NCBI GenBank assembly: GCA_963726265.1
Contig: CAVSBQ010000002.1
Span: 608,001-672,000, forward strand
Direction: 5' to 3'
DNA from: Candidatus Aenigmatarchaeota archaeon
GTDB taxonomy: Archaea > Aenigmatarchaeota > Aenigmatarchaeia > QMZP01 > QMZT01
DNA: 64,000 bases
Part shown: positions 12,431-46,428 of the stretch, in pieces
Layout: the number at the start of each line of letters is the position of its first letter
Numbering within the stretch: position 1 is the stretch's first letter
The notes under the pieces: model-generated
The model's database searches: none
Told to the model about the DNA's origin: nothing
What the model saw: only the letters and a program-made list of their open reading frames with translations
Program-made: the position numbers and the translations under genes

Positions 12431-12503
12431 AAATTAGAATTGCTGTTTCTTCCTTAAATTCCAGAATGGTTTTATTTGGTTTTGTTCGGTTCTGTCTGCA
12501 GAA

Positions 12504-12836
12504 TCAGCCTTTCTTGAGCCGCATTATCGCCTCTGCGATGTCGCCAGTCTCGCGCAACATGGCCCTCGCCTCTTCCTTCGAGACGCCCGCCTGCTCTGAT
12601 ACCATGTCGACGTCGTCGTCGCCCACGTCCTCGCGCTCGCGCTCGGTCACCTGGCCGCCTGTTATCTGGAACGTTTCCTGGCCCATGACCCTTATCTTGG
12701 AAACCTGCGGCTCCACGATGACTATGTCCTTCTCAGGCGTGCGAATCACGACTTCCTCGGCGTCGATATTCGTGACGTTCATGCCCATCTGCTTCATCAT
12801 CTTATCCATCTGTTTGGGGTCCATTTTCATGCCCAT
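12504..12836 (-). CDS. nac: Nascent polypeptide-associated complex protein
   Basis: DPKQMDKMMKQMG, AEEVVI, GQETFQI, UBA-like C-terminus GDIAEAI. Confidence 0.9.
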   Translation of the reverse strand: MGMKMDPKQMDKMMKQMGMNVTNIDAEEVVIRTPEKDIVIVEPQVSKIRVMGQETFQITGGQVTEREREDVGDDDVDMVSEQAGVSKEEARAMLRETGDIAEAIMRLKKG

Positions 12837-12972
12837 AGCGGTCAATAAGGATATTGTGCGGCTGTTCTTAAATTCCTTTTGCAGCCCACAACCTGTTCGT
12901 GCGAAATCCATTTTTCAAAGTATACTTTTGGATAACGAAATGATTTTATAATTTGATAGCCAATTTCTCATT

Positions 12973-15618
12973 ATGCTTTTTCAGATACTCGATGCAGACT
13001 ACACGCTGGTCAACGAGAAGCCGATAATACGCATCTTCGGCAAGGACGAGCGCGGCGAGACGGTCTGCGGCTTCTACGAGGGTTTCGAGCCCTATTTCTA
13101 TGTCCTCGGCAGCAACGCTGAGGAAAGCCTGAAGAACGAGGCGAACGTCGTCCGCGTCGAGAAGGTGAAGAAATTCATGCCGCTCGGCTACCAGGCAGAA
13201 ATGGCCGAGGTATGGAAGGTGACCATAAGGAATCCCGCCAGGACTCCGGAGCTGAGGGAGAAGCTGTTTGCCAGGGGCTTCCGCGTCTTCGAAGCAGACA
13301 TCCCCTTCAAATACAGGTTCATGGCCGACCTCGGGCTGTGCGGCATGGAATGGGTGGAAACCGACGACGCCGGTAGCGTCAATACGAGCACGGTCAGGGC
13401 CCAGAAGATGATGAAGGTAAAAGGTTTCAAAAAGGCAGCCAAAGACGGCATCGTCACGCTGAGGTCGCTTGCGCTTGACATAGAATGCGTCTCGCTCAAG
13501 GAGGGTGAGATGCCGGAGAGCAGGAAAGATCCCATAATAATGATTTCCATGGTCTTCAGCGAGCCGTTCAAGGGACGCAGGGACATGGTACTGAGCACGA
13601 GAGCGGACAGGGACGTCACGTATTTCGAAACTGAAAGAGAAATGCTCGCCGGCATGAATGACTTGATAAACGAATACGACCCGGATATCATAACAGGCTT
13701 CAATATAAACAACTTCGACATGCCTTACATCCTCGAAAGGATGAAGGCAAACGAGGTCTTCGCCGGCTTCGGCAGGTGCACCAAGCCCGTGACCACAAAC
13801 CAGGTAATGGGCAGGCACAAGGTTAACATAGCCGGCAGGATAATGGTCGATTCTTTCGAAATCGTGAAAAGGGGTTTCTCGCTGAAAAGGTACGACCTCA
13901 ACACGGTCTGCCTTGAGCTGCTCGGCGAAGAGAAGGAAGCGGTCAAGAAATCGGAGATAGAGAAGTTCTGGAACGGCAACCAGGAAAAATTCAGGATGCT
14001 TGTCAACTATTCCAGGAAGGACTCCCAGCTGGCCATGAACCTCCTGCTCAGGCTGAACCTCCTTGACAAATACATAGCTTTGTCCAAGGTTTCGGGAATC
14101 CTGCTGCAGGACATACTCGATTCCGGCGAGACCACAAGAATCGAAAACCTGATACTGCGCGAGTTCAACAAGGAAGGTTTCATCGTCCCGTGCAGGCCCG
14201 CCAACCTGGAAGTCGGCAGGAGGGAGAACGCCAGGAAAATCGAGCTCAAGGGCGGCTTTGTGATAGAACCGGACAAGGGCCTGCATTCGAGCGTACTCGT
14301 TCTCGACTTCAAGTCGATGTATCCTTCGCTGATAAGGACCTACAACATATGCCCGACCACGCTCCTGCTGTCGGGCAATGTCGAAGGCGCGGTGGAAGCG
14401 CCGTCGGGGGCGAAATTCGTTCCCGAGAGCATGCGCAAAGGCATCATACCAAGAATACTGGAGCAGCTCATGAAGGAGCGGCAGGCCGTGAAGAAGGAGA
14501 TGAGGAAAGAAACGAAGGCCGAGCGCGTCCGCGAGCTGAAGGCGAAACAGCAGGCGCTGAAGATAATGTCCAACGCGTTCTACGGCTATTTCGGCTATCC
14601 CAGGTCCAAAATATACTGTCTGGAAATTGCCAATTCTATAACGGCCTTCGGAAGGGAGACCATAAAGAAGACGAAGGACTACATAGAAGAGAAATTCAAA
14701 TACAGGGTTGTTTATGGCGACACGGATTCCGTCATGGTCAAGGTCCCTTTCGAAGACCTGGAGGAAATGAGCAAGGCGGGCGAGGATGTGGCAAAGAACG
14801 TGACCTCTGTCCTGAAAGGAGTGATGGAGCTGGAGTTTGAAAAGGTCTTCAAGAGGTTCCTGCCGCTCACTAAAAAAAGATACGCGGCATGGCGTTTTGA
14901 GAAGGTGAACGGCAATTGGATTGAAAGCATCGAAACGAAGGGCATAGAAACCGTCAGAAGGGACTGGTGCGACCTGACGTCGGAAACGATACAGAAGGTG
15001 CTGGAGACCATCCTGAAGGAAAATGACATCAAACAGGCAGTCAGGTATTTCAAGAAAGTCGTCGATGAGATGGTAACCGGAAAGATCGCCATGCAGAAGC
15101 TTATCATAACCAAGACCATGACCAAGAAAGCGGACGGTTATAACGGCATCCAGCCCCATGCGGAACTCGTTAAAAAAATAACGAAACGCAGCCCCGCAGA
15201 GGCGCCGGGCATCGGCGACAGGATTGGCTATGTCATAATAAAAGGGCTTGACCTGCTTTCGAGAAGGGCGGAAGACCCGATATATGTCATGGAAAGGGGC
15301 CTGGAAATAGACCCAAAATATTACATAGAAAACCAGCTGCTTCCGCCCCTGGAAAGGATATTCGACGCGCTGAATATATCCAAGACAGAGCTGCTTGGCA
15401 AGGGCAAGCAGATAGACCTCTTCAGGATAATGAACGGCGTGAACGGTGCTGAAACCAAAACGGATGCAGCCGATGTCCCCATAGGCGATGTCAACGGCTT
15501 CATATGCAAAAAATGCTCCAAGACTTACGCGCTTCCGCCTTTGTCAGGCGTATGCGACTGCGGAAGCTGCCTGCTGTTCTCGTCTCCGCAGGGCCCTGCA
15601 AAAAGCATTATTGTCTGA
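12973..15618 (+). CDS. polB: Family B DNA polymerase, Pol delta-like, with C-terminal Zn finger
   Basis: ExoI DIEC, ExoII NNFDMPY, ExoIII YSRKD, DFKSMYPS, KIMSNAFYGY, YGDTDS, KKRY; C-terminal CKKC-x12-CDC. Confidence 0.95.
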   Translation: MLFQILDADYTLVNEKPIIRIFGKDERGETVCGFYEGFEPYFYVLGSNAEESLKNEANVVRVEKVKKFMPLGYQAEMAEVWKVTIRNPARTPELREKLFARGFRVFEADIPFKYRFMADLGLCGMEWVETDDAGSVNTSTVRAQKMMKVKGFKKAAKDGIVTLRSLALDIECVSLKEGEMPESRKDPIIMISMVFSEPFKGRRDMVLSTRADRDVTYFETEREMLAGMNDLINEYDPDIITGFNINNFDMPYILERMKANEVFAGFGRCTKPVTTNQVMGRHKVNIAGRIMVDSFEIVKRGFSLKRYDLNTVCLELLGEEKEAVKKSEIEKFWNGNQEKFRMLVNYSRKDSQLAMNLLLRLNLLDKYIALSKVSGILLQDILDSGETTRIENLILREFNKEGFIVPCRPANLEVGRRENARKIELKGGFVIEPDKGLHSSVLVLDFKSMYPSLIRTYNICPTTLLLSGNVEGAVEAPSGAKFVPESMRKGIIPRILEQLMKERQAVKKEMRKETKAERVRELKAKQQALKIMSNAFYGYFGYPRSKIYCLEIANSITAFGRETIKKTKDYIEEKFKYRVVYGDTDSVMVKVPFEDLEEMSKAGEDVAKNVTSVLKGVMELEFEKVFKRFLPLTKKRYAAWRFEKVNGNWIESIETKGIETVRRDWCDLTSETIQKVLETILKENDIKQAVRYFKKVVDEMVTGKIAMQKLIITKTMTKKADGYNGIQPHAELVKKITKRSPAEAPGIGDRIGYVIIKGLDLLSRRAEDPIYVMERGLEIDPKYYIENQLLPPLERIFDALNISKTELLGKGKQIDLFRIMNGVNGAETKTDAADVPIGDVNGFICKKCSKTYALPPLSGVCDCGSCLLFSSPQGPAKSIIV

Positions 15619-15648
15619 ATGCCGCTGTATGAATTTTGTATCCTTCAT

Positions 15649-15842
15649 CGTGATTCACCGTGAAGTTGGACCCCCCTGTTTCCTGTGGAGATTTCCGTGA
15701 AGTTCAGGAACGAAACCTTCACTTTTCCTTAACGTGATTCACTGTGAACGTGAAAAATACCTTCATTTCATGTGGAGTTTTGAAATTTCATATAGTTCTA
15801 CGTATGCTTGTTTTTACTTCATTTCACAGGAAATGAAGGGGT
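15649..15842. other. Putative replication origin-like element (ORB cluster 2)
   Basis: Minus-strand ORB-like CTCCACAGGAAACAGGGGGGT (15670-15690) and CTCCACATGAAATGAAGGT (15759-15777); plus-strand TTTCACAGGAAATGAAGGGGT (15822-15842); 44-nt AT-rich spacer between the last two. Confidence 0.6.
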
Positions 15843-15867
15843 TGCTATGCTCATGTATGACAGTTTG

Positions 15868-17091
15868 TTACCATAACAGGTTGAAGAGCGCCGGGTTCAG
15901 TCCGGAGAAATACGTGATGGTGGGCAGGACGAGAAATCCCATCATATGGCTCCTTTTTATGTTTAATGAGATCGCCAGCAGGCCGAGGAACATGCCTGTT
16001 GCAGAAACCAGGATTCCGAGCGGGCCTGACAACACTGCAACGAGCACTACCAATATGATGAGCGTAAAGAGCATGACATTCGTGTAATTCACGTCTTTCA
16101 TTTTTTTCAGCATCAGTTTTGCCGCCTTGACTGTTATCAAAGCCGACAGCAGCGACGTGATTATGCCAACTATTATGATCAAAGCCATATCAGAGAGGCG
16201 CATGTTATCTATGACCTGCGAAAGCATCCAGACCGCGCCTGACCTTGTTTTCCCTATTGCATAAAAAACGACGAACGTGAAAAACATGTTCGACGTGTTT
16301 ATCCCGCCAAGGGCTATCAGGAACTCCTTCACTTTTGCCCTGAATATCTGGGCTGATATTATGCCTGTCTGGGAAGAACCAAGGCCGGGCAGCAGGCCCG
16401 CCAGCAGGCCGGCAAGCCATCCGGTCAGGCTTCCTTTCAGCCAGTCGCCGCTAATTTCGCTCTGGATTTTCTGCGGTGGTATTTTCGTTTTGGCCACTAT
16501 GCTGGTGAGTATGGTGCTCAGACCGAACAGGCCAGTGAGCGCGGGGAACATGGCGCCGTCGGATGGAAAGGAATTGAGCGTCACGAAGCCGAAGATGCCT
16601 GAAAACATGAAAACAAAAGCTGCCGCAAGCCTGTTCTTGTCGCTCCATACCATCCACAGGACAACCGAAAGCAGGATTAAGTGGATAACCGGCCTTATCG
16701 CGGCATGCAATATGGGCAGCAGGAAAACGAGCGCGGGAAGGCTTATGATTGTAAGAAAAACTACTCCAAGCCCTCCCATGACCGTGAGGAAGATTGCCTC
16801 ATACCCCCGCCCGTCCAGCAGCATCTTGTGCCCTGGGAGGACTGAGAGCGCGGAATCCTCGTCCGGCGCGCCGAATATGACCGAAGGTATGAAATCGAAA
16901 AACGTGTTGGATATCGCCAGCGAGACGACGAACGCCATGATGGCCTCTGTTGGCAGGCCGGCCATGAGGAAGACCAAAGAGAATGTCAGGGCGAACACGG
17001 TATTTGGATGGATGCCCGGCGCGAGGCCGGTGATGAAGCCCAGCGCCACGCCAAGGAGCGTGAAGAACACGATCTCCATGAACATGAGCAC
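15868..17091 (-). CDS. Tripartite tricarboxylate transporter TctA/DUF112 family membrane protein
   Basis: GFITGLAPGIHPN, FFDFIPS..GAP, LSVLPGH..LLDGRGYEAI, PALTGLFG. Confidence 0.85.
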   Translation of the reverse strand: MLMFMEIVFFTLLGVALGFITGLAPGIHPNTVFALTFSLVFLMAGLPTEAIMAFVVSLAISNTFFDFIPSVIFGAPDEDSALSVLPGHKMLLDGRGYEAIFLTVMGGLGVVFLTIISLPALVFLLPILHAAIRPVIHLILLSVVLWMVWSDKNRLAAAFVFMFSGIFGFVTLNSFPSDGAMFPALTGLFGLSTILTSIVAKTKIPPQKIQSEISGDWLKGSLTGWLAGLLAGLLPGLGSSQTGIISAQIFRAKVKEFLIALGGINTSNMFFTFVVFYAIGKTRSGAVWMLSQVIDNMRLSDMALIIIVGIITSLLSALITVKAAKLMLKKMKDVNYTNVMLFTLIILVVLVAVLSGPLGILVSATGMFLGLLAISLNIKRSHMMGFLVLPTITYFSGLNPALFNLLW

Positions 17092-17119
17092 ATTTTTGCT
17101 TCACGCCTTAAAAAATTAA

Positions 17120-17144
17120 GTTTAAACATGCGTTTAAACATAGC
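17120..17144. promoter_or_regulatory. Palindromic operator-like motif GTTTAAAC-N4-GTTTAAACATAGC (copy 1)
   Basis: Same motif recurs at 60745-60769; lies in a divergent intergenic region. Confidence 0.4.
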
Positions 17145-17287
17145 CTGCTGATGGCGGTTAATTCCGTGAAATTGCGTGAATTTCATGCCATTCTGGGCGC
17201 GCATGTGAAGTTTTGTGAATTTGATTGCAAAATGAGGGTCAATGAAAGAAACGGAACGGATTTAAGTAATTGACGTAAATTAATTAC

Positions 17288-18007
17288 ATGGTTGACGAAA
17301 TAACTCTGGTCAACGGAAAGTTGGCAAAGGATATAATAGGCGAGATCATACTCTCCGACAGGCCCGAAGAGGTCCTGAAGAAGTGGAGGGTCATTTTCGG
17401 GCTTTCCCAGAAGGCGCTCGCCAGCCACATGGGCATAACGTCATCTGTCATATCGGACTACGAATCCGGACGTAGGAAGTCGCCTGGCATAAACGTCATA
17501 AAGAGGTATGTGAACGCTTTGCTGGCGATGGATATGAAAAGGGGCGGGATTGTCGTTAAAACGTTCACCCCGCCCGTCGGCCCCTCGAACCTGTCCAAGG
17601 CGATAATAGACATAAAGGAATTCTCGAAAGGCGTCCCAATTGAAGAGTTCTGCATGAAGATAAGCGCTCCCATAATAACCAAAAGGGCGCCCCTCGACAG
17701 GGAAGTTTACGGCTACACCGTTGTCGATTCCGTCAAGGCAATACTCGAGGTGCCGCACACGCAGCTCGTACAGCTCTACGGAGCGACCACGCAGCGCGCC
17801 CTCATCTTCACCGGCGTGACGACGGGCAAAACGCCTCTGGTCGCCATCAAGCTCACGGGCCTGCAGCCAGGGCTTGTCGTGCTTCACGGCCTGGAAAAGG
17901 TGAATGAAGTTGCCATGAACATCGCTGAAGTGGAGGGCATACCGGTCGCTCTATGCAGGATAGACTCGATACAGGAAATAGTCAACAAGCTGAAGGAGCT
18001 TGGCTGA
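17288..18007 (+). CDS. XRE-type HTH transcriptional regulator (archaeal COG1709-like)
   Basis: IIGEIILSD, LKKWR..FGLSQKALA, SVISDYESGRRKSPG, LYGATTQRALIFT. Confidence 0.85.
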   Translation: MVDEITLVNGKLAKDIIGEIILSDRPEEVLKKWRVIFGLSQKALASHMGITSSVISDYESGRRKSPGINVIKRYVNALLAMDMKRGGIVVKTFTPPVGPSNLSKAIIDIKEFSKGVPIEEFCMKISAPIITKRAPLDREVYGYTVVDSVKAILEVPHTQLVQLYGATTQRALIFTGVTTGKTPLVAIKLTGLQPGLVVLHGLEKVNEVAMNIAEVEGIPVALCRIDSIQEIVNKLKELG

Positions 18008-18023
18008 ACAGGAAATTTCGTTT

Positions 18024-18698
18024 TTATATCTTCTTTATTTCACATTTCACTTCCTTGTCTATCTCGACAAGGCCGTAATACCCTTCATAAGACGCACCCG
18101 GATAAAACAGGGTGGTGGTCCCCAGCTTGTCTACGCCGCCTGCCTCATGGATGTGCGCCGATATCGCCAGCAGGGGCTTCTCTTTCTCTATGAACTGCCT
18201 CACTGCCTTCGAACCAACGTGCTCCCCCGCCTCCACTTTGTCAAGGTTCGTTTCGAACGGCGGGTTATGGACGACCAGAATGAACTTTCCCTTCACGCCC
18301 TTCATGCTCTTCGTGAGCGCGGCGTCTATTTCCTCATCAGTCGGCTCGAACTTCGTGTTGAATGGCGTTGCGGCCCCGCCGAAACCTATGAACTCCGTCC
18401 CCATGAAAGCCCTCGTCTTCTCGTGCAGGTTGGTGCCGTACTCGTCGAACAGCTCGATTATATCATATGGCTCGTGGTTGCCCGGGATGCAGAAAACGGG
18501 TTTTCCGAGCGAAAGCAGCTTCTGTATTATCAGCTCGGCTATGTCAAGCTGGGAATAACCCTCGGGGATGTTATACATGTCGGTAAAGTCGCCGGGGCAT
18601 ATGACAAGGTCGAATTCGTGGCTTCTTATTTTATCAACAAGCTTCGAAAACTTTTCAAATTCCCCGTGCACGTCCGCGATCACAAGGATTTTTAGCAT
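18024..18698 (-). CDS. Calcineurin-like metallophosphoesterase (Icc-related)
   Basis: DVHG, GDFTD, PGNHE, HNPP, HVGS, AHIHE. Confidence 0.9.
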   Translation of the reverse strand: MLKILVIADVHGEFEKFSKLVDKIRSHEFDLVICPGDFTDMYNIPEGYSQLDIAELIIQKLLSLGKPVFCIPGNHEPYDIIELFDEYGTNLHEKTRAFMGTEFIGFGGAATPFNTKFEPTDEEIDAALTKSMKGVKGKFILVVHNPPFETNLDKVEAGEHVGSKAVRQFIEKEKPLLAISAHIHEAGGVDKLGTTTLFYPGASYEGYYGLVEIDKEVKCEIKKI

Positions 18699-18758
18699 AT
18701 TAATCCTTTGTTGAACGGTTATTAAATTTGCTGCTGTCGCATCCAACGGGTTCGGGAG

Positions 18759-19649
18759 TCATAGATTTCCGAAAACGACCTCGTCGCCGTCGTATTCGGC
18801 AAAGCTGTCGGCGTCCGTGGATATGATGACGACGCCCCTGTAGTTCCTAGTCCAGTTCTTGCCGTTGCCGAAGAGCCAGAAAATGCCCGGCACGTCTTCT
18901 ATTACATTATCCGTGGCGCCTTCATTTGGCAGTGTCCTTTTTTTCAATATCCTGATGGCCTCTTCTTCGGGTGTTTCTTTGATGGGCGCATAGGCAAGCA
19001 CAAAAAGTTCCCTGCCATGCCTTGATATCTTTATCGTGCCGATTCTGCTGAAGCCGGTTATTATGTTGTCCGCTTTCATCGCGCCAGGGCATATTATCGT
19101 GCCTGGCATGCCTTCCTTCATCTTGGACGTGAGCGTTATTTTCATATGAACCGGCTTCGGGCTGCTTTCAAGCGGGATGTCGGGCCATATTGTCTGGTTC
19201 GGGAAGAAGCTGTTGTCCCTGAAGAAGCCGCGGAAACCCATCACATCGCCCGTTTTTATGTCCATGCTGTCGCTCATGACTTCGGTTTCCCCTGTTATGT
19301 CTTCAAGGACGAAGCCGCGTGATGTGGAGCTTTTTATCCTTCCGATTATCGTCGCCTCTGAAAAGACCTTCTTGCCTTTGTTGATGGAAACGGCGTCCGT
19401 TTTTTTCAGGAGCAGGCCCCTGAGGAACTCGAACCTTCTCCCGCAGCCCTTTATGAAATCTTCGCAGGAAACCCTGCCAGTTTTCGGCGTGCCGACCTCG
19501 AAACCGTCCTTTTTGTTTTCCGATAGCTTTTTCTCGAGGACTTGCATGTAGTTTTTTTCGTCAAGCGCCCCGGCTTCCTCGGGTGTGAGCATTATGCCGT
19601 TCTTGAGAAAGAGGCCTATGATGTCTTTCTTGCCTTCAAGCCTGTCCAT
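18759..19649 (-). CDS. Degenerate PolD small-subunit (DP1)/B-subunit homolog, predicted nuclease-inactive
   Basis: N-term FLKNGIMLTPE; OB-fold IIGRI..LEDITG..GDVMGFRG..IWPDIP; C-term LKKRTLP..DNVIEDVPGIF..YRGVVII matching DP1 LKKRHLAP..LVIE.VPDIF..YRGV; metal-binding His motifs absent; directly downstream of cdc6. Confidence 0.7.
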   Translation of the reverse strand: MDRLEGKKDIIGLFLKNGIMLTPEEAGALDEKNYMQVLEKKLSENKKDGFEVGTPKTGRVSCEDFIKGCGRRFEFLRGLLLKKTDAVSINKGKKVFSEATIIGRIKSSTSRGFVLEDITGETEVMSDSMDIKTGDVMGFRGFFRDNSFFPNQTIWPDIPLESSPKPVHMKITLTSKMKEGMPGTIICPGAMKADNIITGFSRIGTIKISRHGRELFVLAYAPIKETPEEEAIRILKKRTLPNEGATDNVIEDVPGIFWLFGNGKNWTRNYRGVVIISTDADSFAEYDGDEVVFGNL

Positions 19650-19740
19650 GAGCCATTATTCAGAAAACGGACATTTAAATTTGCTCGGGCGTGTTGCTCG
19701 GTGGGTCACAGGGCGCATGCGAACAAACCCAGGAAAGGGC

Positions 19741-20958
19741 TCAGATGAACTCGCCGCTGAACAGTTTCTCGATTTTTTCAACCATGTCGGAAGAAAGGTC
19801 CGTCTTTATCTCCCTAGTCCTGCCGTAACGACCTTTCGATATGACCTTGGCGTTCACTATGCCGAACATGTCGAGCTCGGATATGAGATCCGAGACGCGC
19901 CTCTGCGTGAGCGGCTTGAGGTTGTTCTTCCTGCACGTGCTGGCATAAACGTCGTATATGTCGCCCGTCTGTATTTTCTGCCTGCCTTCCTTCGAAAGCT
20001 TGAGTATCGCGATTAGCACGCACTGCGACTGTTTCGGCTGGTTGCGGATTATTTCGGTCGTCTTGTCCGTGTCCAGCCTCTTTTCCGCAAGGTCGACGTG
20101 CTCCTCTGAAACCGTGCTGCTGTTCACGCGCTCTGCGGTCTCGCCGGCGACTCGCAGCAGGTCGAGCGCCTTCCTGGCGTCTCCGTGCTCCTGGGCGGCG
20201 AGCGCAGAGCATTTGGCAACCGTCGAAGGCAAAACCACGCCGTCGTTGAAGGCCTGGCCGACCCTTTCGGCAAGGATGTCCCTCAGTTCGTTGGCGTTGT
20301 ACGGCGGGAAAACTATCTCCTCCTCCGAAAGCGACGACTTGACACGCGGGTCAAGGTCGTTTATGAAGGATATGTTGTTGGATATCCCCACCAGGGTAAG
20401 CTTGGATTTCCTGAGGTCCTGGTTTACTCTCGTGAGGTTGTAGAGCACGCCGTCGCCTATCTTGCTGACGAGGGCGTCAATTTCGTCCAGGACTAGTATG
20501 ACATTCTGTTCCTCGGAATCGAGCAGCTCAAAAAACCTCCGGTAGAGCTGGTTCGTCGGGAGACCCGTAAAGGGAACCGTGATACCGAAGTTTAAAATGA
20601 GCTGGGAAAGCATGCGGTATTCGGTATCGGACACCTTGCTCATCTTGCAGTTTATGTAAATTACCTTTATCTTACCGTTGCCGTTTTTCCTGGCCGCCTC
20701 CTTGAGTTTTGCCGTGGTGTGCTGGACGCACAGGGATTTGCCCGTTCCTGTCTTGCCATAGATGAATATGTTCGACGGTTTTTCCCCCCTCAAAACAGGA
20801 GCCAGTATCATGCCGATCTGGTTGATTTGTTTTTCCCTATGCGGTATGTTGTCCGGTGTGAATTGTATGGATAATCTGTTCTTGTCCCTGAAAACCGCCC
20901 TTTTTTCCACGCAGTTCTGGAATATTTCGCCTAAGGAAAGCTGGGCCATATTCTCCAT
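19741..20958 (-). CDS. cdc6: Orc1/Cdc6 replication initiator
   Basis: IPHRE, IYGKTGTGKS, YINC, VLDEID, LDPRVKSSL, FPPY, HGDARKALDLL, wHTH SKGRYGRTR. Confidence 0.96.
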   Translation of the reverse strand: MENMAQLSLGEIFQNCVEKRAVFRDKNRLSIQFTPDNIPHREKQINQIGMILAPVLRGEKPSNIFIYGKTGTGKSLCVQHTTAKLKEAARKNGNGKIKVIYINCKMSKVSDTEYRMLSQLILNFGITVPFTGLPTNQLYRRFFELLDSEEQNVILVLDEIDALVSKIGDGVLYNLTRVNQDLRKSKLTLVGISNNISFINDLDPRVKSSLSEEEIVFPPYNANELRDILAERVGQAFNDGVVLPSTVAKCSALAAQEHGDARKALDLLRVAGETAERVNSSTVSEEHVDLAEKRLDTDKTTEIIRNQPKQSQCVLIAILKLSKEGRQKIQTGDIYDVYASTCRKNNLKPLTQRRVSDLISELDMFGIVNAKVISKGRYGRTREIKTDLSSDMVEKIEKLFSGEFI

Positions 20959-21126
20959 ATGAAACTGGGGTTTAAATGCTTTTCAAAAACACCGAGACAC
21001 CTTCGTTTCCCATGGAACTTTGTTTTTTTATTTCATATGGAACTTTATAACATTGTTATAATATCATTACTCTTACTTGATTCTTAAACAAAACAAAACA
21101 ATTAAATCTCCAGTGGAAATTAGGGT
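20953..21126. other. Replication origin oriC adjacent to cdc6
   Basis: Minus ORB GTTCCATGGGAAACGAAGGTGTC (20996-21018), minus mini-ORB GTTCCATATGAAAT (21030-21043), 64-nt very AT-rich DUE, plus ORB CTCCAGTGGAAATTAGGGT (21108-21126), and plus ORB-like CTCCATATGAAACTGGGGT (20953-20971). Confidence 0.8.
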
Positions 21127-21150: not shown

Positions 21151-22339
21151 TTATTTATTTTTTAACTTCCTGGTTGACCTTTCTATCCTCTCCAAAGCCA
21201 ACCCAATCTTTTCATAAGACGTCGCGAAAGAGCATCTGATATAACCTTCCCCGCACCTGCCGAACTCCGTGCCCGGCGTGACAGCAACATTCGCCTTTTT
21301 CAGCAGCCACCTGGAAAAGCCAAGGGAACTCATGCCAAAGGCCTTTATGTTCGGGAAAGCGTAGAAAGCGCCACCAGGCTCGATGCAGGATACGCCGGGT
21401 ATCTCGTTCAGGCGTCTTGTGATAAGCTGCCTTCTGCGGTCGTATTCCTTTACCATCTTCGCCACCGCCTTCTGTGGTCCGCCGAGCGCGGCAAGGGCGG
21501 CCTCCTGTGATATGGTCGGCGCGCAGACGCTGGTGTACAGGTGAATTTTTTTCATGGCATTTATTATGTTTTCCGGGCCGGCTGCATAACCCAGCCTGAA
21601 ACCGGGCATGGCATACGTTTTCGAGAAAGATTGCAGCGTAAGCACGCGGTTTCCCATGCCGTTCAGCGAGCCGATTGATATGTGCTTCTCGCCGCCATAG
21701 ACGAGCTTTTCATACGCCTCGTCAGAAAGGATCAGCAGATCATACTCGCACGCGAAATCGGCTATTTCCTCAAGCGTTTTCCTTCTTGAAAACTACGCCC
21801 GTCGGGTTGGATGGGGTGTTGACTATCATCACATTGGTTTTTTCAGGCAGTATAATCTTCCGCGCCTCTTCGGCCATGAACCGGAAGCCGTGCTCCTCAT
21901 AATGCGGCACGCACAGCGGCATGCCGTCAAGCATTTCAACCGTGGGCCTATATGCAAGGAAGCCCGGGTCAGGCACGAGCACGCCCTCGCCCGGGTCGGT
22001 CGTGCACATGAGCGCCATCATTATCGCCTCGGTCGAGCCCACGGTAACAATGACCTGGTCCGGCGAAACGTCTATTTTGTTTTCCCTCTTAAGTTTTTTG
22101 GATATCGCCTCCCTGAGATTCCTCCGCCCTTCTGGCGGAGCGTAATGTGTATAGCCTTCGCGCAGCTTCCTGCACGCAAAGTCAATGATGTGTTTTGGGG
22201 TGTCAAAGTCCGGCTCTCCCGGACCTAGGGAAATTATGCCCTTATTCTCTTCTGCGATTTTTATAAGGTAGCCCATCGTGGACAGCGGCAGCTCCTCCTC
22301 CCTTTCAGCGATTATGTGGCGTGACACCAATTTGCGCAT
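21151..22339 (-). pseudogene. Class I/II PLP aminotransferase (AspAT-like) interrupted by a 1-nt frameshift
   Basis: LGPGEPDF, NTPSNPTG, then a frame change near 21777-21782; continues as TLEEIADFA..ILSDEAY..SFSKTYAMPGFRLG..GAFY..GEGYIR. Confidence 0.8.
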
Positions 22340-22413
22340 CTTATGTTTCGTTGGACGTTTTTCGGACCGCATAATAATATATTCTCCTTGGCAATAATAT
22401 TCCTGAGGGCATC

Positions 22414-39774: not shown

Positions 39775-40410
39775 TTACACCTTGAGTTTGATGGGCGGAC
39801 CCATCGTAAGTTTGACATATGCGTCTTTTATGTTCATCTTGCCTTTCGGCAGCTTTTCCTTCACGAAGTTCATCACGGCAATCACGTTTTTCATTATTTG
39901 TTCTTCCTTCATGTCTTCCTTGCCAACAGCCAGATGTATGACAGGCGAATCCTTCAGTCTTATCTTGACCATCCTTTTAGACATCTCGACGAATGGCAGA
40001 ATGCTTCCCTTTGGCGGTATCGGCCTTGGCATCTTGCCCCTCGGGCCAAGGACAGTTCCAAGGGTTTTACCCACAAGAGGCATGAGCGGCGCTTCGCAGA
40101 ACCACCATTCATATTCCTCGGCATATTTCTTGAGCTTCTTTTTGTCTTTGCCAAGGGCTTCCAGATCGCCCCTGACGATAACCAAACCATCCGTTTTTTT
40201 GGCTTCCGGGAGAAGCATGTCAACAATAAAAATGTATTTGCTTTCCCTGCCCCTGCCTTCCGGCAGGGCCAATTCGAGGTTAAGCTTGTTTTCCGGTTTC
40301 TTGAGGTCAAGGTTCTTGAGATTGATTAACAGATCCCAGGTTTGCAGAAATTTCCTTTGCTTGGCCTTTTCCTTCGCTTCCCTTATTTCCTTCAAAAACT
40401 CTTCTTCCAT
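39775..40410 (-). CDS. rpl1: 50S ribosomal protein L1
   Basis: RKFLQTWDLLINLK, LGPRGKMP, YVKLTMG. Confidence 0.95.
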   Translation of the reverse strand: MEEEFLKEIREAKEKAKQRKFLQTWDLLINLKNLDLKKPENKLNLELALPEGRGRESKYIFIVDMLLPEAKKTDGLVIVRGDLEALGKDKKKLKKYAEEYEWWFCEAPLMPLVGKTLGTVLGPRGKMPRPIPPKGSILPFVEMSKRMVKIRLKDSPVIHLAVGKEDMKEEQIMKNVIAVMNFVKEKLPKGKMNIKDAYVKLTMGPPIKLKV

Positions 40411-40480
40411 CGTCTTAACCTCCTGCTTACGCAGTAAACGGCTAGGATTCTTTATTCTTGTCAATGTGGGTATTTAAATA

Positions 40481-40900
40481 TTATGCCATACCCATGGCCA
40501 TTAGAATCATGTAAAAAACCAGAAAAACGTGCCTGAGCGGCAGTATCAGATGCCTTCTGCGCGCGACGGACCACAGCGACAAAAGGCAGTTAAGCGTGAA
40601 AAGGCAGAACCACGGGAAGAATACCACAAACACGATGCCTTCCGAAAGCCTGTCGCTTGCAATGTCCACAAGATGACCTTCCTCGGACGTCCTGCTGAAT
40701 TTTCTGGCCACGATGCCGTCAAACCAGTCAAGCAGCAGCGTGCAAAAAAGCAGCGTCAGCGCCAGGGGCATGGAATATTTAACAGACAGAAGAAAGAGCA
40801 TGGATGTTATTATGGACATGCCTGAAAGTGCATTGGGATTAATGTCAGGCAGCGGCAGCCTCATGCCTATTGCATCCATTCCATTCCTCAGTTTTTTCAC
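40481..40900 (-). CDS. CDP-alcohol phosphatidyltransferase family protein
   Basis: PNALS; DWFDGIVARK...G..VD..SDR signature. Confidence 0.8.
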   Translation of the reverse strand: MKKLRNGMDAIGMRLPLPDINPNALSGMSIITSMLFLLSVKYSMPLALTLLFCTLLLDWFDGIVARKFSRTSEEGHLVDIASDRLSEGIVFVVFFPWFCLFTLNCLLSLWSVARRRHLILPLRHVFLVFYMILMAMGMA

Positions 40901-41361
40901 AAAAGCAGGCTTGCTGTATCCAACCAGAATAACACCCCCGTCAAAAGAGTCAATACAATTTCGAATAAAATTTTGTTCCTGTAGCCGTAAGGGAATATGT
41001 GCAGAAAAACCTCGGTTTTAGAATATGGATAAAAAGGCATGGACTTGCCGGCAAGGAAATCAAGCGCAAAATGGAGGACCATGCAAAGCGCCGCTATCAT
41101 GGTCGCGTGGGGAAAAAACAGGTAACAGATGCAAACAAGGGCGGACAGCAGCGTCAGGCCGTATATTTCATGAAATCTAGTTCTGGATGCCGAGCCGAAC
41201 CTTCTTTTGATGACTCCGCTTCCCGTCTTCAACAGATAAGGGACATGCGTCAGGTCGATAGCAACCGAAAAAATAAGAATGAATATAACATAACTCCACG
41301 CATTGCCTATCACGAAATCAACAAAAAGGTAATTGAATAAAAAATGAAAAGCCACATTCAT
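40897..41361 (-). CDS. Membrane metal-dependent hydrolase (YdjM/DUF457-like)
   Basis: N-terminal H, IDLTH, RTRFHE, HFALD, PFYP. Confidence 0.65.
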   Translation of the reverse strand: MNVAFHFLFNYLFVDFVIGNAWSYVIFILIFSVAIDLTHVPYLLKTGSGVIKRRFGSASRTRFHEIYGLTLLSALVCICYLFFPHATMIAALCMVLHFALDFLAGKSMPFYPYSKTEVFLHIFPYGYRNKILFEIVLTLLTGVLFWLDTASLLL

Positions 41362-42740
41362 ATTTTCCTCTCGAAATATTTTCTGAGAAAGACGGAAAAT
41401 CCCATGTTTTTTTCAACAAGCTTCCCGGCGTCCTTTGATTTTAAAAGCATGAAGCCTCTCGAAATGCCTTTCGCTATATGCGACCTTATCCCATCGCGAG
41501 TCAGCTGCCTCTCTGATTTTCTAAGGAAGCCTTTCAGGAGAAGTTCAAGCTTTCTGCATTTCCTTTTAGCCTCGACACAAAGCTTGCCATTTTCAACATA
41601 AACGTTGTATTTGCCGTATTTTTTCCTGAATTCAGCGGCATGCCTTTCGGAACTGGCAGGGGGACCAGATACCTTGGTCATTTCAGACAGAAGCCAAGTC
41701 TTCATTTCAAATATCATGTAGGCTTTCTTTTCATCACCCCATACATCCTGATGAAAAACATCAAAGTCATTTTCCTCCATTAGATGCGCAAGCCTCAAAG
41801 ACGTTTTTCTCATCTGGGACCAGAGTATGTCATCCACAACTTTGGGCCTGTTAAATTTCAGAACGAAAAGTTCCGTGCCTCTTTTTTTAAGGTGATTTTT
41901 GACGTCATTTTTTTTCAGATAACCTTTATCTATCTCGAAAAACCTCAAAGAAGGTTTTCTGGAGAATTTCTTGCACACATCAACGAATTTCACGAAGTTT
42001 TCCTTCGACAGCGACGCTGCAACATTCCTTTTCGGATCAGTCGGGTCTATAACTATCAATGGTTGGTCCCTGAAATTTTCAGTAGGGTATTCAAACTTGC
42101 AATGATTTTTAAGGTCAATGAATACGCCGAATTTCCATTTTTTCGCGGCATTCAGAAGCCTCCTGAAATCTTTGTATTTTATTATCAGAAGCTCGCACAG
42201 ATAACCGGAAAAACCCAGCGTGCGTATATCGGAGCCGTATATATCAATCGCTTTGCAGAACTGCTTCAAAAGCCTGACGTCATTCGCCATTTTAGGCCTC
42301 AGGTTTTCAAGTATATACTTGTTGTGGAAGGGCGTGCGGTCAACTGCTGACATTATTTTGGCTGCCGATGCAACCTTATAGCAAGGCACGATATCCACAG
42401 AAAACTCGCCAATTTTTCCCTTCACATAGGGGTGCTCAGCATACGCTATTTCGTATTTGCCTTTCATTTTTTTCACGATTTGTCTGCCGATTTCGAGGCC
42501 GGTTTTTTCAAGCCTTTCTCTCGTGTATGTGACCGGGAACAGTATGAAAAGGTCCAGCTCCCTTTTATCAGCGAGCCACGTGTCGCGTATAAACGAACCG
42601 GCTATCGTTTTTTCAAGTTTGAGCGGCCTTATGACGCTGTCGGTGGCAGCCAAAACTTTTTGCAGGACCTCGGAAAATTCCCTCATTTCGCTTTCCTTCG
42701 GCACTATTTTTTCCAGCGCCCTTTTCAGAACGGCATCCAT
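41358..42740 (-). CDS. cca: CCA-adding enzyme (archaeal class I)
   Basis: GSFIRDTWL..ELDLF, YAEHPY, DIVPCY, SAVDRTPFH, GFSGYLCELL, IDPTDPKRNVAA. Confidence 0.95.
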   Translation of the reverse strand: MDAVLKRALEKIVPKESEMREFSEVLQKVLAATDSVIRPLKLEKTIAGSFIRDTWLADKRELDLFILFPVTYTRERLEKTGLEIGRQIVKKMKGKYEIAYAEHPYVKGKIGEFSVDIVPCYKVASAAKIMSAVDRTPFHNKYILENLRPKMANDVRLLKQFCKAIDIYGSDIRTLGFSGYLCELLIIKYKDFRRLLNAAKKWKFGVFIDLKNHCKFEYPTENFRDQPLIVIDPTDPKRNVAASLSKENFVKFVDVCKKFSRKPSLRFFEIDKGYLKKNDVKNHLKKRGTELFVLKFNRPKVVDDILWSQMRKTSLRLAHLMEENDFDVFHQDVWGDEKKAYMIFEMKTWLLSEMTKVSGPPASSERHAAEFRKKYGKYNVYVENGKLCVEAKRKCRKLELLLKGFLRKSERQLTRDGIRSHIAKGISRGFMLLKSKDAGKLVEKNMGFSVFLRKYFERKI

Positions 42741-42776
42741 AGTTATTCTATTTGCTCGGTATTTTATTAAACATCA

Positions 42777-43886
42777 TCAGCGCACGTCAAACCTGATGTT
42801 GCCAGTGTTGCCCAATACGTGCCACCAGCTCAGATAAGGCTGCATGGCAAGCATAAACAATATTATCAATAAAAGGAGGCCGAATTTCTTCCCGTGCGCA
42901 GATGACATCCTGAACAAAAACCCGGAAGAAATCATGCACATGGGAACAACAGCATATGTGCAGAATCTGTCCGGATAAAAAGGTATCAGGACAAGCAAAA
43001 CAAAAAACCATAAAAACAGCATCACATTAAACCTGTCCAGGTCCCTTCTTTTTAAAAAAATACAGATGGACGACACTGAAAACAATGAAACCGGAACCCA
43101 TCCAAGATACTCAAAAAAATACAGCGGGTTCTGCCAAACCAAATTCTCCTGCGGGTTTTGTATTCTCATTGCAGCCGAGCCGAAATATGAAGGCAAAAAA
43201 ACCAGAGTCAGCATGATCAGTGGGATTGAAGCAACCAGAACCTGAATGATAAATTTCGAGCCGGTTTTGAATCTCCATGAATAAATCACCAATGATCCCA
43301 GAATAAGCAAGCCGAAAACGCCATGTGAATATATCGTGATAAGCATCGAAATGATGAATGGCACACGTCTTTTCTGCATGAAAAAATAGATTGCCAGCGG
43401 AAAAAATATCATATCCAGTGCCTGTGGTGTTACCTGCACAGACCTGTCGAAAAAGGCAATAGATGATAGAAGCATGACCGAGACGAAAGCCGCCGGGGCA
43501 ATGCCAGCCTTTTTGTATACAATAAAAACTGAGGCAAATAATGCCAGTGGATAGAATATCATCTGCAGAAGAAGAGCGAACTGAGCAGCGATGCCTAATC
43601 TGATGAACGGCACAAAAATAAGATGAAACAGCGGGGGATACGGACCCATGTTGGGGTTCATAAATTCCTCCTTGAACATGGCATTTTCTCCCCGTGCATA
43701 AGACTCTGCAATTTCAATATGATACCAAAAATCCCCGCCTATCGGTTTCCCGATCGTCATGGATATTGCTGTAGAAAGGAGAAATGACAGGAAGATTGCC
43801 ACGATTGCAAAAAGCAGATAAATTTTATTCTCCGTTCCCTTTGGCAGGATTTTTGCCAGCATGGTATTTTTCATAGAGATCTTCAA
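42777..43886 (-). CDS. Polytopic membrane protein, GT-C glycosyltransferase-like
   Basis: GDFWYH, YPPLFH, PQA, about 10 TM segments. Confidence 0.6.
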   Translation of the reverse strand: MKISMKNTMLAKILPKGTENKIYLLFAIVAIFLSFLLSTAISMTIGKPIGGDFWYHIEIAESYARGENAMFKEEFMNPNMGPYPPLFHLIFVPFIRLGIAAQFALLLQMIFYPLALFASVFIVYKKAGIAPAAFVSVMLLSSIAFFDRSVQVTPQALDMIFFPLAIYFFMQKRRVPFIISMLITIYSHGVFGLLILGSLVIYSWRFKTGSKFIIQVLVASIPLIMLTLVFLPSYFGSAAMRIQNPQENLVWQNPLYFFEYLGWVPVSLFSVSSICIFLKRRDLDRFNVMLFLWFFVLLVLIPFYPDRFCTYAVVPMCMISSGFLFRMSSAHGKKFGLLLLIILFMLAMQPYLSWWHVLGNTGNIRFDVR

Positions 43887-43929
43887 TTAAGTTTTTATTG
43901 CGTTTAAATTAAAATAAAGCGTCAGGCAG

Positions 43930-44769
43930 GTGATTCTTGTGGCATTTATAAAAGTAAGCCTTGGCTCCTTTGTCGACACGCAACGACAGGTAACCGACAT
44001 ATCATCAAAGAGGCTCGTTACCATTGAAGAAAATTCAAGGCTTCTGGATGTTTTAAGCCTCCTTTTTTCAGAAGGGGTCAGAAAAATCCCGATAATTGAT
44101 AAGGCGGGCAACCTTAAAGGCATCGTGTCATCCATAGACATACTCAGCCTGCTTGGCGGCGGCGACAAACATGAAATTTTCAGGAAAAACATGGGGAGCA
44201 TGGAACTAAAGACGGACAAATTCGCCACAAGACAAGTAAAGACGATACATTTCAGAACGAGCATAAAGAAGGCGCTGGAAACATTCAAGACGGAAAGGAG
44301 CGGCATGTATCCCTTGACTGATTCGAGGAAGCTGATATCCGTAGTCTCTGAATGGGATTTCGTAAAACTGATCGACAGGCCGGTGGGGATAAAGATAGGT
44401 GAAATCATGGTCGAACGGCCGCTTTTCGTTCAAAAGAAGCACACTACGTATGAAGCTGCAAAAATGATGTGCAGGGGCGGCTTCAGGCGCCTGCCTGTAG
44501 TGGAGGAGAACATACTGCTGGGAGTGATAACACCTACCGACATACTTTCCCACGTCAAAAACAGCAGAATCTGGGGCAGCCTTGTTGCGGACAAAACGCG
44601 CGTGGAGCATGTTATGAAAAAGGAAGTGGTCACAGTCAGCGCGGATGATGATTTGTTTACTGCGGCCAGCATCATGAAAGGCAGGCACATTGGCGGCTTG
44701 CCCGTGGTGGATGATGAAGAGCTTGTCGGCATAGTGACCGAAAGGGATATAGTGGATGTATTAGCATGA
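43930..44769 (+). CDS. CBS-domain protein (4 CBS)
   Basis: RKIPII..GIVS..D, FRRLPVV..GVIT..D, IGGLPVV..GIVTERD. Confidence 0.88.
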   Translation: MILVAFIKVSLGSFVDTQRQVTDISSKRLVTIEENSRLLDVLSLLFSEGVRKIPIIDKAGNLKGIVSSIDILSLLGGGDKHEIFRKNMGSMELKTDKFATRQVKTIHFRTSIKKALETFKTERSGMYPLTDSRKLISVVSEWDFVKLIDRPVGIKIGEIMVERPLFVQKKHTTYEAAKMMCRGGFRRLPVVEENILLGVITPTDILSHVKNSRIWGSLVADKTRVEHVMKKEVVTVSADDDLFTAASIMKGRHIGGLPVVDDEELVGIVTERDIVDVLA

Positions 44770-45227
44770 AAAACAGCAGAATAGATGAAGAGCAGCTCCA
44801 GAACATCATAAAAGAGCTGGCCGAGGCCCTGGTCATAGTCGAAGGCAAAAACGACGAAAAAGCTTTAAAAAGCCTCGGCCTGAAAGATATTATTGCGATC
44901 AAGGGGACGCCGCTCTATAAGGTGGCCGAGGTCGCATTGAGAACAAAAAAAGAAGTCGTGATATTGACTGATTTCGATAAAAAAGGCAGGGAGATGGAAA
45001 AAAAGCTGAGAACCCTGCTTCAAAGGCACGGGAAAATCCCGAATTCGAAATTAAGGTGTAAGGTAATGTCACTGGAAAAAAACAGGATAGAGGATCTGTG
45101 GGGCATTGATACCCACGGGACCATTTCATTCAGGGAGGATGATTTTTATGTCAAAACTAGCACCGACTTCGATAAAATACGTGGTAAAAGCAGAGATAGA
45201 TGCCCAAGGGGTAATAGAAAAACCTGA
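44766..45227 (+). CDS. Small TOPRIM-domain protein (RNase M5-like)
   Basis: IVEGKND, ILTDFDKKG. Confidence 0.85.
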   Translation: MKNSRIDEEQLQNIIKELAEALVIVEGKNDEKALKSLGLKDIIAIKGTPLYKVAEVALRTKKEVVILTDFDKKGREMEKKLRTLLQRHGKIPNSKLRCKVMSLEKNRIEDLWGIDTHGTISFREDDFYVKTSTDFDKIRGKSRDRCPRGNRKT

Positions 45228-46428
45228 TGTCATAGGCGCAATATTCGGACAGACAGAAGGCTTGCTTGGTTCTGATCTTGACCTGAGAGAGCTTCAGAGA
45301 ACAGGTAGAATAGGCAGGATAGAAGTCAACATAAATTCTGAAAGGGGCAAATCGCACGGAGAGGTTATAATACCATCGTCGCTTGATTCCGCCGAGACTG
45401 CCCTAATAGCAGCTACGCTGGAGACGATAGAGAGAGTAGGACCATGCATAGCAAAAATAATCCTCAAGTCCGTCGAGGACACGCGTGAACTGAAGAGAAA
45501 GTTCGTCATAGACAAGGCCAAAATCATCCTGAGAGAACTTCTTGAAAAAGGCATACCGGACACGTCAAAAATAGCAGAGGAAATAAAACAAGAAATAAAG
45601 ACCTACGAAATAACCACATATCAAGGCCTCCCATGCGGTCCGGGCATACTGGAATCCGAAGAAACAATCATAGTGGAGGGAAGGGCAGATGTCATAAACC
45701 TCGTGAGATACGGCATAAAGAATGTCATTGCCATTGAAGGCAGTTCCATACCGCAGCAGATAATAAACCTGTCAAGGCAGAAAACAACGACCGCCTTCTT
45801 TGACGGCGACAGGGGAGGAACCCTCAACCTGAAAAGCCTCATGGAAACAACGGACCTGGATTTCGTCGCGATCGCGCCCGAAGGCAAAGAAGTCGAGGAG
45901 CTTTCGAAAAAAGAAGTGTTCAAGGCGCTCAGGGACAAGGTAGCAGCTTCCCAGTTCAGGACGGAAGCCAGGGGAGACAGGCAGAATAACAATGACAGAA
46001 GGGAAAGGCCGGTCGAAAGGCCAGTAGAAAGGCCCGTCGAAAAGCTAAATGAGAGACCCCCGGAAAGGCTAGGCGCCGAACAGCCTAGAGATGTCGAATT
46101 CAGACAGCAGCAGCAAATGCCGCCCAGAAAAATACCAATAACAGATGAGCAGAAAAGGATATTCAAAAAAACACTGGAAGAACTGATAGGCACAAGGGCG
46201 GCATGCATATTCGATTCGTCTTTCAACATACTGGGCAAAGTCCCGACCAAGGAGCTGCATAACACTCTCAAAACTCTGGATAACCCGTATGCAGTCATCT
46301 TTGACGGGCGGGTTGACTACAAACTGGACATAATAGCGAGAAGAAAATCGGTCAAATTTTTGATAGGCATGGAGAAAGATAACATAAAGTCACCCGTCAA
46401 CATCCTGTCAAAAGAGGACATAGAATAA
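45148..46428 (+). CDS. dnaG: Archaeal DnaG (exosome-associated primase homolog)
   Basis: EKPDVIGAIFGQTEGLLG, GRIGRI, IIVEGRADV, FFDGDRGG; GGAGG RBS before 45148. Confidence 0.95.
   Translation: MSKLAPTSIKYVVKAEIDAQGVIEKPDVIGAIFGQTEGLLGSDLDLRELQRTGRIGRIEVNINSERGKSHGEVIIPSSLDSAETALIAATLETIERVGPCIAKIILKSVEDTRELKRKFVIDKAKIILRELLEKGIPDTSKIAEEIKQEIKTYEITTYQGLPCGPGILESEETIIVEGRADVINLVRYGIKNVIAIEGSSIPQQIINLSRQKTTTAFFDGDRGGTLNLKSLMETTDLDFVAIAPEGKEVEELSKKEVFKALRDKVAASQFRTEARGDRQNNNDRRERPVERPVERPVEKLNERPPERLGAEQPRDVEFRQQQQMPPRKIPITDEQKRIFKKTLEELIGTRAACIFDSSFNILGKVPTKELHNTLKTLDNPYAVIFDGRVDYKLDIIARRKSVKFLIGMEKDNIKSPVNILSKEDIE
46003..46038 (+). repeat. Three 12-bp tandem repeats encoding ERPV in the DnaG linker
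   Basis: GAAAGGCCGGTC GAAAGGCCAGTA GAAAGGCCCGTC. Confidence 0.8.

Follow-up and report, generated by a model that had tools for sequence, protein, structure and literature searches.

A zinc-finger B-family polymerase and an inactive DP1 homolog in an Aenigmarchaeota origin gene cluster: a very probable two-subunit replacement for polymerase D

Introduction

Can a B-family DNA polymerase (PolB) that ends in a zinc finger resembling that of DP2, the large subunit of polymerase D (PolD), pair with a degenerate copy of the PolD small subunit, DP1, as an archaeal equivalent of the catalytic-subunit/B-subunit polymerases of eukaryotes? The question is raised by a 64,000-nt stretch of DNA (hereafter the window) from a Candidatus Aenigmatarchaeota archaeon (assembly GCA_963726265.1, contig CAVSBQ010000002.1, positions 608,001–672,000). 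A preliminary description of the window had pointed to a zinc-finger PolB, a degenerate DP1, a cdc6 gene and origin-like repeats lying close together, and we recovered all four in place.

Much of the setting is already in print. Kazlauskas et al. (2020, PMC7544198) described Aenigmarchaeota PolBs of group B6 with one DP2-like zinc motif and a group of inactive DP1 proteins, and noted that DP2 is absent from most Aenigmarchaeota; in their proposal, PolB took the place of DP2, and its proofreading allowed DP1 to become inactive. A 2025 paper (PMC12680538) reported Baldrarchaeia and Aenigmatarchaeota that lack DP2 and keep DP1, and an interaction of Aenigmatarchaeota DP1 with the PolB-DP2CTD protein, supported by yeast two-hybrid assays and AlphaFold3. 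The linked inactive partner, which the preliminary description had taken to be new, was thus published in 2020, and the interaction in 2025. Our literature search found no further paper on this system of a PolB and a dead DP1. The window is an instance of the published system, from which it does not differ in kind.

Our reading, which we consider very probable, is that the window holds the origin gene cluster of an Aenigmarchaeota archaeon whose PolD was replaced by a two-subunit B-family polymerase. It is based on gene content, homologies, motif loss, the absence of DP2 from the assemblies, co-occurrence and gene order.

Results

A proofreading polymerase with a DP2-like zinc finger

The putative catalytic subunit is an 881-residue PolB encoded at 12973–15618 on the forward strand. 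It matches the Pfam domains DNA_pol_B (E = 6.6e-114, 381.6 bits) and DNA_pol_B_exo1 (E = 6.2e-38, 131 bits) against a cut-off of 23, and the exonuclease motifs Exo I, II and III and the polymerase motifs Pol A, B and C are all found (DIE169, NINNFD244, YSRKD346, DFKSMYPS445, KIMSNAFYG530, YGDTDS581 and KKRY634). By domain scores and motif content, the protein is predicted to be an active, proofreading member of the B family, and the earlier statement that its exonuclease motifs are intact holds. Compared by sequence with solved structures, it is closest to the catalytic subunit of human Pol delta (6s1m_A, E = 1.7e-124), with Thermococcus PolB (1wns_A, E = 3.6e-116) and yeast Pol delta (E = 6.7e-116) slightly behind.

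The last 70 residues of PolB (15406–15615, forward strand) comprise a GKGKQ motif, a variable linker, a CxxC-x12-CxC finger and a short conserved end. The four cysteines of the finger (Cys845, Cys848, Cys861 and Cys863, encoded at 15505–15561) are invariant in the aligned relatives from the same order (28/28), as are five more positions of the tail (P, G, G, F and G). None of the Pfam zinc-finger families matches the tail. The finger could be compared with DP2 proper within the phylum, where one family, f10, still has PolD with a DP1 that bears all its motifs: an hhalign comparison with the f10 DP2 C-termini gave a probability of 97.1% (E = 5.4e-11, 35 columns). Conversely, the PolB-tail profile has weak matches in f10 (E ~1e-6), those listed falling inside DP2 frames near their C-termini, and a tblastn search with the DP2 C-terminus has the PolB tail as its best place in the genome, but weakly (E = 0.084). 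On these alignments, the PolB finger is homologous to the C-terminal finger of DP2. The preliminary description was right as to the DP2 kinship of the finger; the tail is a single Cys4 module, most like the last DP2 finger and of the kind found in the group B6 subgroup with one zinc motif, and not the two-module (CysA plus CysB) domain of the eukaryotic enzymes.

The same genome encodes a second PolB of 841 aa (G000:C2:164399–166924, positions 295–2820 of locus L002). It is ~33% identical to the PolB of the window, carries both Pfam PolB domains, has no zinc finger and ends, by eye, in a motif resembling that of PCNA-interacting proteins (PIP); PolBs of this second type (~30–34% identity) are listed for most genomes of the order. 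Might the zinc-finger PolB and the DP1-like protein form a pair that is specialised for one strand or for repair, with the second PolB replicating the chromosome? Archaea and eukaryotes usually divide such tasks among several polymerases, and the two Pfam domains, the PIP-like end and the wide occurrence of the second enzyme all speak for this arrangement. Yet the zinc-finger PolB is the one kept in the cdc6 cluster across the phylum and the one that took over the docking module of DP2, and for PolBs without the tail PMC12680538 reports no interaction with DP1. We regard a leading role of the second PolB as unlikely, and still worth keeping in view.

Note that the frames of the zinc-finger PolB reach 1317–1730 aa in five relatives (G028, G081, G112, G141 and G148), which suggests inteins.

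A shortened and degenerate DP1

The proposed partner is a 296-aa protein encoded at 18759–19649 on the reverse strand. It matches no Pfam family, PF04042 included, and because Pfam returned nothing, its homology had to be established with an NCBIfam model, a family profile and the predicted fold. The NCBIfam DP1 equivalog model NF003118 matches the region of the oligonucleotide/oligosaccharide-binding (OB) fold only (E = 3.9e-10), with 39 bits against a cut-off of 445. A profile built from 26 family members and run against the PDB retrieves solved DP1 chains (E = 4e-12) and adds a weak, colinear match in the C-terminal part, at the site of the DP1 GHxH motif, which is replaced here. With its AlphaFold2 model (predicted local distance difference test, pLDDT, 87.2; predicted template modeling score, pTM, 0.77), Foldseek returns DP1 of P. 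abyssi first (9f2a_A, E = 3.8e-15); eukaryotic B subunits come next, from Pol epsilon, delta, alpha and zeta. The matches to DP1 and to the epsilon, delta and alpha subunits are at probability 1.00; for p50 of Pol delta (6tny_B), the E value is 3.8e-9 and TMq 0.63. The model consists of an N-terminal helical domain, an OB fold and a shortened remnant of the phosphodiesterase fold. The predicted fold is thus that of the DP1/B-subunit family, an OB fold plus a calcineurin-like phosphodiesterase fold, with the latter shortened.

An active DP1 carries five motifs (DxH, GD, GNHD, H and GHxH). In an alignment with three full DP1 sequences from the same phylum, DxH, GD, GNHD and GHxH are replaced in the 296-aa protein and one histidine alone aligns; a regular-expression search finds no DxH, GNH or GHxH in it. 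The protein is also ~180 residues shorter than full DP1. Across the 26 family sequences, whose identity goes down to 26%, 23 columns are invariant. Of 41 relatives, 39 have the gene, and in none of the listed matches is its frame interrupted by a stop. Judged from sequence and predicted fold, the protein is a real, shortened and catalytically dead DP1 homolog, and the degenerate, inactivated DP1 of the preliminary description is borne out by the fold match and the missing motifs.

Other families of the phylum show intermediate states. The DP1 sequences of f10 (472–494 aa) have all five motifs; one f14 sequence (364 aa) and one f13 sequence (392 aa) keep motifs I, II, IV and V, with GNHD replaced; and nearly all motifs are gone from one sequence each of f15 and f8 (339 aa) and from the protein of the window. 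The f13 and f14 sequences keep four of the five motifs without DP2; therefore, DP1 seems to have been inactivated step by step and after DP2 was lost, a lead rather than a count with single sequences per family.

Predicted docking of the PolB tail on the DP1 homolog

If the PolB tail retains the docking function of the DP2 finger, a structure prediction of the tail with the DP1-like protein, as the preliminary description had suggested, should yield a confident interface. We folded the alignment of the DP1-like family together with an alignment of a 95-residue PolB tail. The complex scored 0.73, the best control 0.01; the mark that it passed is one that 116 of 157 solved complexes attain, as do 2 of 215 mismatched pairs, a calibration that is only rough with self-made alignments. 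The runs agree in at least 93% of the contacts, and the partner has a pLDDT of at least 64. On the side of the small subunit, the predicted interface involves (i) the helix before the OB fold, (ii) OB strands and (iii) residues 244–246 of the phosphodiesterase remnant; on the side of PolB, it involves the finger and the C-terminal end (residues 48–57, 67–73, 80–83 and 90–95 of the 95-residue piece). The contact between PolB and the DP1-like protein is thus predicted, and the docking of a C-terminal metal module on a small subunit, by which the heterodimers of this kind are recognised, is here a prediction in silico.

A conserved gene array with an inverted polymerase

In the window, the genes follow one another in the order NAC-domain gene, PolB, TctA-family gene, helix-turn-helix (HTH) gene, metallophosphoesterase, DP1-like gene, Orc1/Cdc6. 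We compared this arrangement across the order (61 genomes, 23 of them at least 90% complete) and across the phylum (151 genomes, 7 in f10 and 144 outside it), taking the best listed match per genome and leaving out f10 rows, second matches and weak rows. Outside the order, among the matches listed, 92 of 97 genomes have PolB directly after the DP1-like gene and in the same direction, with a median DP1-like-to-PolB span of 3,748 nt, longer spans accompanying the intein-sized frames; in the other five, the genes are on different contigs (three), convergent (one) or in the order PolB first (one). Within the order, again among the matches listed, they are convergent in 27 of 34 genomes, with 1.5–5.1 kb between them; the other seven have the genes on different contigs (five) or PolB upstream (two). 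In 98 of the 100 non-f10 genomes tabulated (35/35 in the order and 63/65 elsewhere), the next gene upstream of the DP1-like gene is the cdc6 ortholog (E ≤ 1e-100). In f10, cdc6 is directly upstream of DP1 in 0/7 genomes, the genes being on different contigs. Since the co-directional array is conserved elsewhere, the 8-kb linkage in the window is what is left of an array that ran cdc6, DP1-like gene, PolB before PolB was inverted in this order. Synteny across relatives, a check that had been proposed for the pairing, thus shows the array conserved in most of the phylum.

Note that in f13 the best cdc6 match is 31–36% identical and lies away from the DP1-like/PolB pair, the values elsewhere being 50–60% for genes directly upstream; f13 seems to have lost its linked initiator or exchanged it for another.

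The tight association of cdc6 with the DP1-like gene, adjacent throughout the order and with PolB inverted away, would also fit a DP1-like protein that acts without PolB, as an accessory of Orc1/Cdc6 or as an adaptor to GINS or primase, the PolB finger serving to bind DNA or PCNA. The binding of DP1 by Gins51 in Thermococcus (PMC8096248) can be counted in its favor. Against it, PolB directly follows the DP1-like gene nearly everywhere outside the order, the complex prediction held up against its controls, the PolB tail occurs together with the short DP1 and to the exclusion of DP2 (see below), and a yeast two-hybrid interaction is published for the lineage (PMC12680538). A role of the DP1-like protein independent of PolB is therefore hard to credit, though it is not absurd.

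DP2 found in one family and one further genome

Does the genome encode another, intact PolD? In this assembly (1.13 Mb, 4 contigs, 88% complete), no DP2 was found with PF03833 or with 787 aa of a same-phylum DP2, the best tblastn value being E = 0.074. Nor was a second DP1 found, a full same-phylum DP1 matching this locus only (E = 3e-11); the DP1-like protein is the only DP1 homolog found. Across the 61 genomes of the order, the count is 0/61 both for DP2_N and for PF04042, so that DP2, the defining trait of PolD, was found nowhere in the order.

In the phylum, DP2 occurs in 8 of 151 genomes, namely all seven of f10 and G131. The DP1-like profile matches 145 of the 151, in frames of 460–523 aa in f10 and of about 290–400 aa elsewhere, and a strong PolB tail (E ≤ 7.5e-13, frames of ~890 aa) is found in 138 of the 144 genomes outside f10. 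The remaining six are G004, cut short by a contig end, G106, with a weak match, and G054, G098, G168 and G172, without a match. Two combinations thus recur, DP2 with a long DP1 and a PolB tail with a short DP1, and G131 is the sole genome that shows both. This co-occurrence, exclusive with DP2, is what the proposed pairing of PolB with the dead DP1 called for, and, together with the finger homology, the complex prediction, the gene order and the lack of DP2 and of a second DP1, it supports that proposal.

Two genomes deserve a comment. In G131 (f13), DP1 and DP2 are adjacent on a 3-kb contig (C64 and C30 are involved) and the zinc-finger PolB is on another contig; either the bin is contaminated or the two truly coexist. 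G004, from the same genus as the archaeon studied here, looked like a case of a DP1-like gene without a zinc-finger PolB; the metallophosphoesterase gene is the last on its contig, and we set the case aside as an assembly gap.

Two further explanations bear on the missing PolD. The DP1-like gene could be a functionless relic, decaying after the loss of PolD, as the loss of all nuclease motifs and of ~180 residues might suggest; its open frame, its retention among relatives and across the phylum, its invariant columns and its confident fold leave this idea with almost nothing to recommend it. Equally hard to sustain is a DP2 gene hidden in the 12% of the genome that is unassembled, with the DP1-like protein as its divergent partner, given that DP2_N was found in no genome of the order, 23 of them at least 90% complete, and that the sole DP2-bearing family has a full-length, five-motif DP1 and not the short form.

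Initiator, origin-like repeats and neighboring genes

The Orc1/Cdc6 protein (405 aa; 19741–20958, reverse strand) carries the Pfam domains AAA, Cdc6_lid and Cdc6_C. It scores 431 bits with the subfamily model TIGR02928 (cut-off 181) and 499 bits, just under the cut-off of 501, with the equivalog NF001625; with its AAA+, lid and winged-helix regions, it belongs to the Orc1/Cdc6 family.

Two families of origin-like repeats occur at the locus. Three copies of TTTCMTGTGRAR lie in the PolB–TctA intergenic region (15670–15842), two direct (at 15679 and 15766) and one inverted (at 15822), around an AT-rich spacer of 50 nt; they coincide with the inverted repeats I7 and I8 and span 15679–15833. With at most one mismatch, TTTCMTGTGRAR has 9 matches in the window against 2.66 expected, a count reached by 0 of 100 shuffles with a pattern chosen post hoc. 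Exact copies occur just past the PolB stop in the loci of many relatives and upstream of cdc6 in four. The short YTCMNNTGGAAM, also chosen post hoc, has 5 matches in the window against 1.44 expected; three (at 21007, 21032 and 21108, within 21007–21119, forward strand) surround an AT-rich segment immediately before the start of cdc6, and the repeat clusters upstream of cdc6 in 10/10 loci of the family (L005–L014). A first pattern for origin recognition boxes (ORB) missed the third copy, and its count was reached by 15 of 100 shuffles; it was replaced. We take both families to resemble archaeal ORB elements, on an assumed consensus and with patterns fixed post hoc, and treat them as candidate boxes only.

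A stand-alone metallophosphoesterase (240-aa frame; 18024–18746, reverse strand) starts 12 nt downstream of the DP1-like gene. It matches Metallophos (E = 1.6e-22) and Metallophos_3 (E = 4e-16) with the generic motifs of the family; its best solved relative is the hypothetical Aquifex protein aq_1956 (2yvt_A, E = 6.4e-5), matches to Mre11/SbcD being weak. At E ≤ 1e-5 and with paralogs included, a match is present in 58 of the 61 genomes of the order, the best one per genome usually adjoining the cdc6/DP1-like pair (by eye, not tallied). At E ≤ 1e-15, it is present in 94 of the 151 genomes of the phylum, in 0/7 of f10, and is largely missing in f8, f17, f7 and f14. Judged by eye, it directly follows the DP1-like gene in f1 and f4, is divergent from cdc6 in f3, f5 and f6, and in f11 and f13 precedes the array. 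The idea that it is the split-off nuclease domain of DP1 was rejected: the DP1-like protein keeps its own remnant of that domain, and the neighbor is generic, has no PF04042 and has paralogs elsewhere. It might conceivably be a working third component that supplies in trans, at the fork or the origin, the phosphoesterase or nuclease activity lost by the dead DP1; several DP2-less families do without it, which speaks against an obligatory part, and we consider the proposal very doubtful.

Between PolB and the metallophosphoesterase lie a TctA-family membrane protein gene (15868–17091, reverse strand) and a gene for an HTH protein (17288–18007, forward strand). Short direct repeats based on GTGAA (families D12 and D20) occur upstream of the HTH gene (17166–17225) and in the PolB–TctA spacer (15649–15748) and may be operator sites of the HTH protein. 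On the other side of PolB is a gene for a 135-aa protein with NAC and UBA domains (12504–12911, reverse strand). A 161-aa open reading frame (ORF) on the opposite strand (12466–12951, forward) was considered as an extra subunit and dismissed as a shadow of the better conserved NAC gene, which outscores it in tblastn, both matching 22 of the 29 PolB loci of relatives that were searched.

Elsewhere in the window, a class I/II aminotransferase is present as two ORFs 112 nt apart (21151–22372, reverse strand), one of 200 aa that covers positions 2–166 of the Pfam profile and one of 168 aa that covers positions 211–361, and is probably a disrupted gene. Positions 40001–50000 have a G+C content of 0.42–0.47 against 0.50–0.57 across most of the window and may be an island.

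Discussion

How would the two proteins work together? PolB would supply both polymerisation and proofreading, and its tail would keep the final finger of the DP2 that was lost. The most likely docking site of this tail is where the OB fold of the DP1 homolog meets its phosphodiesterase remnant, in the way that DP2 attaches to DP1, and eukaryotic catalytic subunits to their B subunits. With its nuclease motifs gone, the DP1 homolog would now be a scaffold only, and PolB would be the main replicase. The N-terminal domain and the OB fold of the small subunit probably link the polymerase to other parts of the replisome, a suggestion made because DP1 binds Gins51 in Thermococcus.

Several observations weigh against replacement of PolD by this pair: (i) the DP1-like protein stays below the thresholds of both Pfam and NCBIfam; (ii) past its finger, DP2 has ~45 more residues and a terminal PIP-type motif, both of which PolB lacks, and PMC12680538 calls the Aenigmatarchaeota PolB tail degenerate and its predicted structure different; (iii) the complex prediction is roughly calibrated, and its pass may reflect the likeness to solved DP1–DP2 and B-subunit complexes and is not proof of binding; (iv) in this order, the DP1-like gene and PolB are convergent, with three other genes between them, and are not co-transcribed; (v) the genome is 88% complete, which bears on the absence of DP2; and (vi) the second PolB could be the main replicase. 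With these points taken into account, we still hold replacement of PolD by the zinc-finger PolB and the DP1 homolog to be very probable.

What does the window add to a system already described? The main texts of PMC7544198 and PMC12680538, to which our search was confined (supplements lay outside its scope), do not contain 'operon', 'synten' or 'neighbo' with regard to Aenigmarchaeota, and the gene array and its PolB inversion may thus be an addition to the literature. Altogether, our analysis contributes this conserved array and its inversion, a family that keeps PolD, hints of a stepwise decay of DP1, and the recurring metallophosphoesterase gene in the cluster.

Comparison with known systems

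The closest counterparts are the published B6-aenigma1 PolBs and the inactive DP1 group 'Aenigma_GB_GCA_002789635-like'. The system of the window shares with them the lineage (by the source names of homologs), a PolB with its own exonuclease and a single Cys4 module, a DP1 that is inactive, and the lack of DP2; the likeness to B6-aenigma1 is drawn from these features, the homolog source names and the best PDB match to Pol delta. Baldrarchaeia, with PolB3, form the second archaeal lineage for which PMC12680538 reports no DP2, a retained DP1 and a PolB-DP2CTD fusion that binds DP1; as that paper describes them, the Baldrarchaeia tail is the longer one and nearer to the domains of DP2 and of the eukaryotic enzymes, whereas the Aenigmatarchaeota tail is shorter and degenerate.

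With archaeal PolD (DP1–DP2), the system has in common a small subunit made of an N-terminal domain, an OB fold and a phosphodiesterase fold, and a zinc finger for docking. It differs in the catalytic body, which is the double-psi beta-barrel DP2 in PolD and a PolB here, in the site of proofreading, which is DP1 in PolD and PolB here, and in the segment and the PIP motif after the DP2 finger, which are missing from PolB. In Pyrococcus, the cdc6, DP1 and DP2 genes lie beside the origin, in an order that resembles the cdc6, DP1-like, PolB array; the likeness fits an in-place swap of the catalytic body.

Finally, the system shares with eukaryotic Pol delta (small subunit p50/Pol31), Pol alpha, Pol epsilon and Pol zeta a C-terminal metal module that is predicted to dock on a dead DP1 homolog, and with Pol delta, its best solved relative being the human enzyme, a B-family catalytic subunit with its own exonuclease. 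The eukaryotic enzymes have CysA and CysB where the window's PolB has one Cys4 module, and a small subunit much longer than the 296 aa found here; we know of no third or fourth subunit of the Aenigmarchaeota PolB system. The latter can be viewed as a present-day archaeal analogue of the eukaryotic polymerases built from a catalytic and a B subunit, and it bears on their origin from PolD, a significance already in print together with a first test of the interaction.

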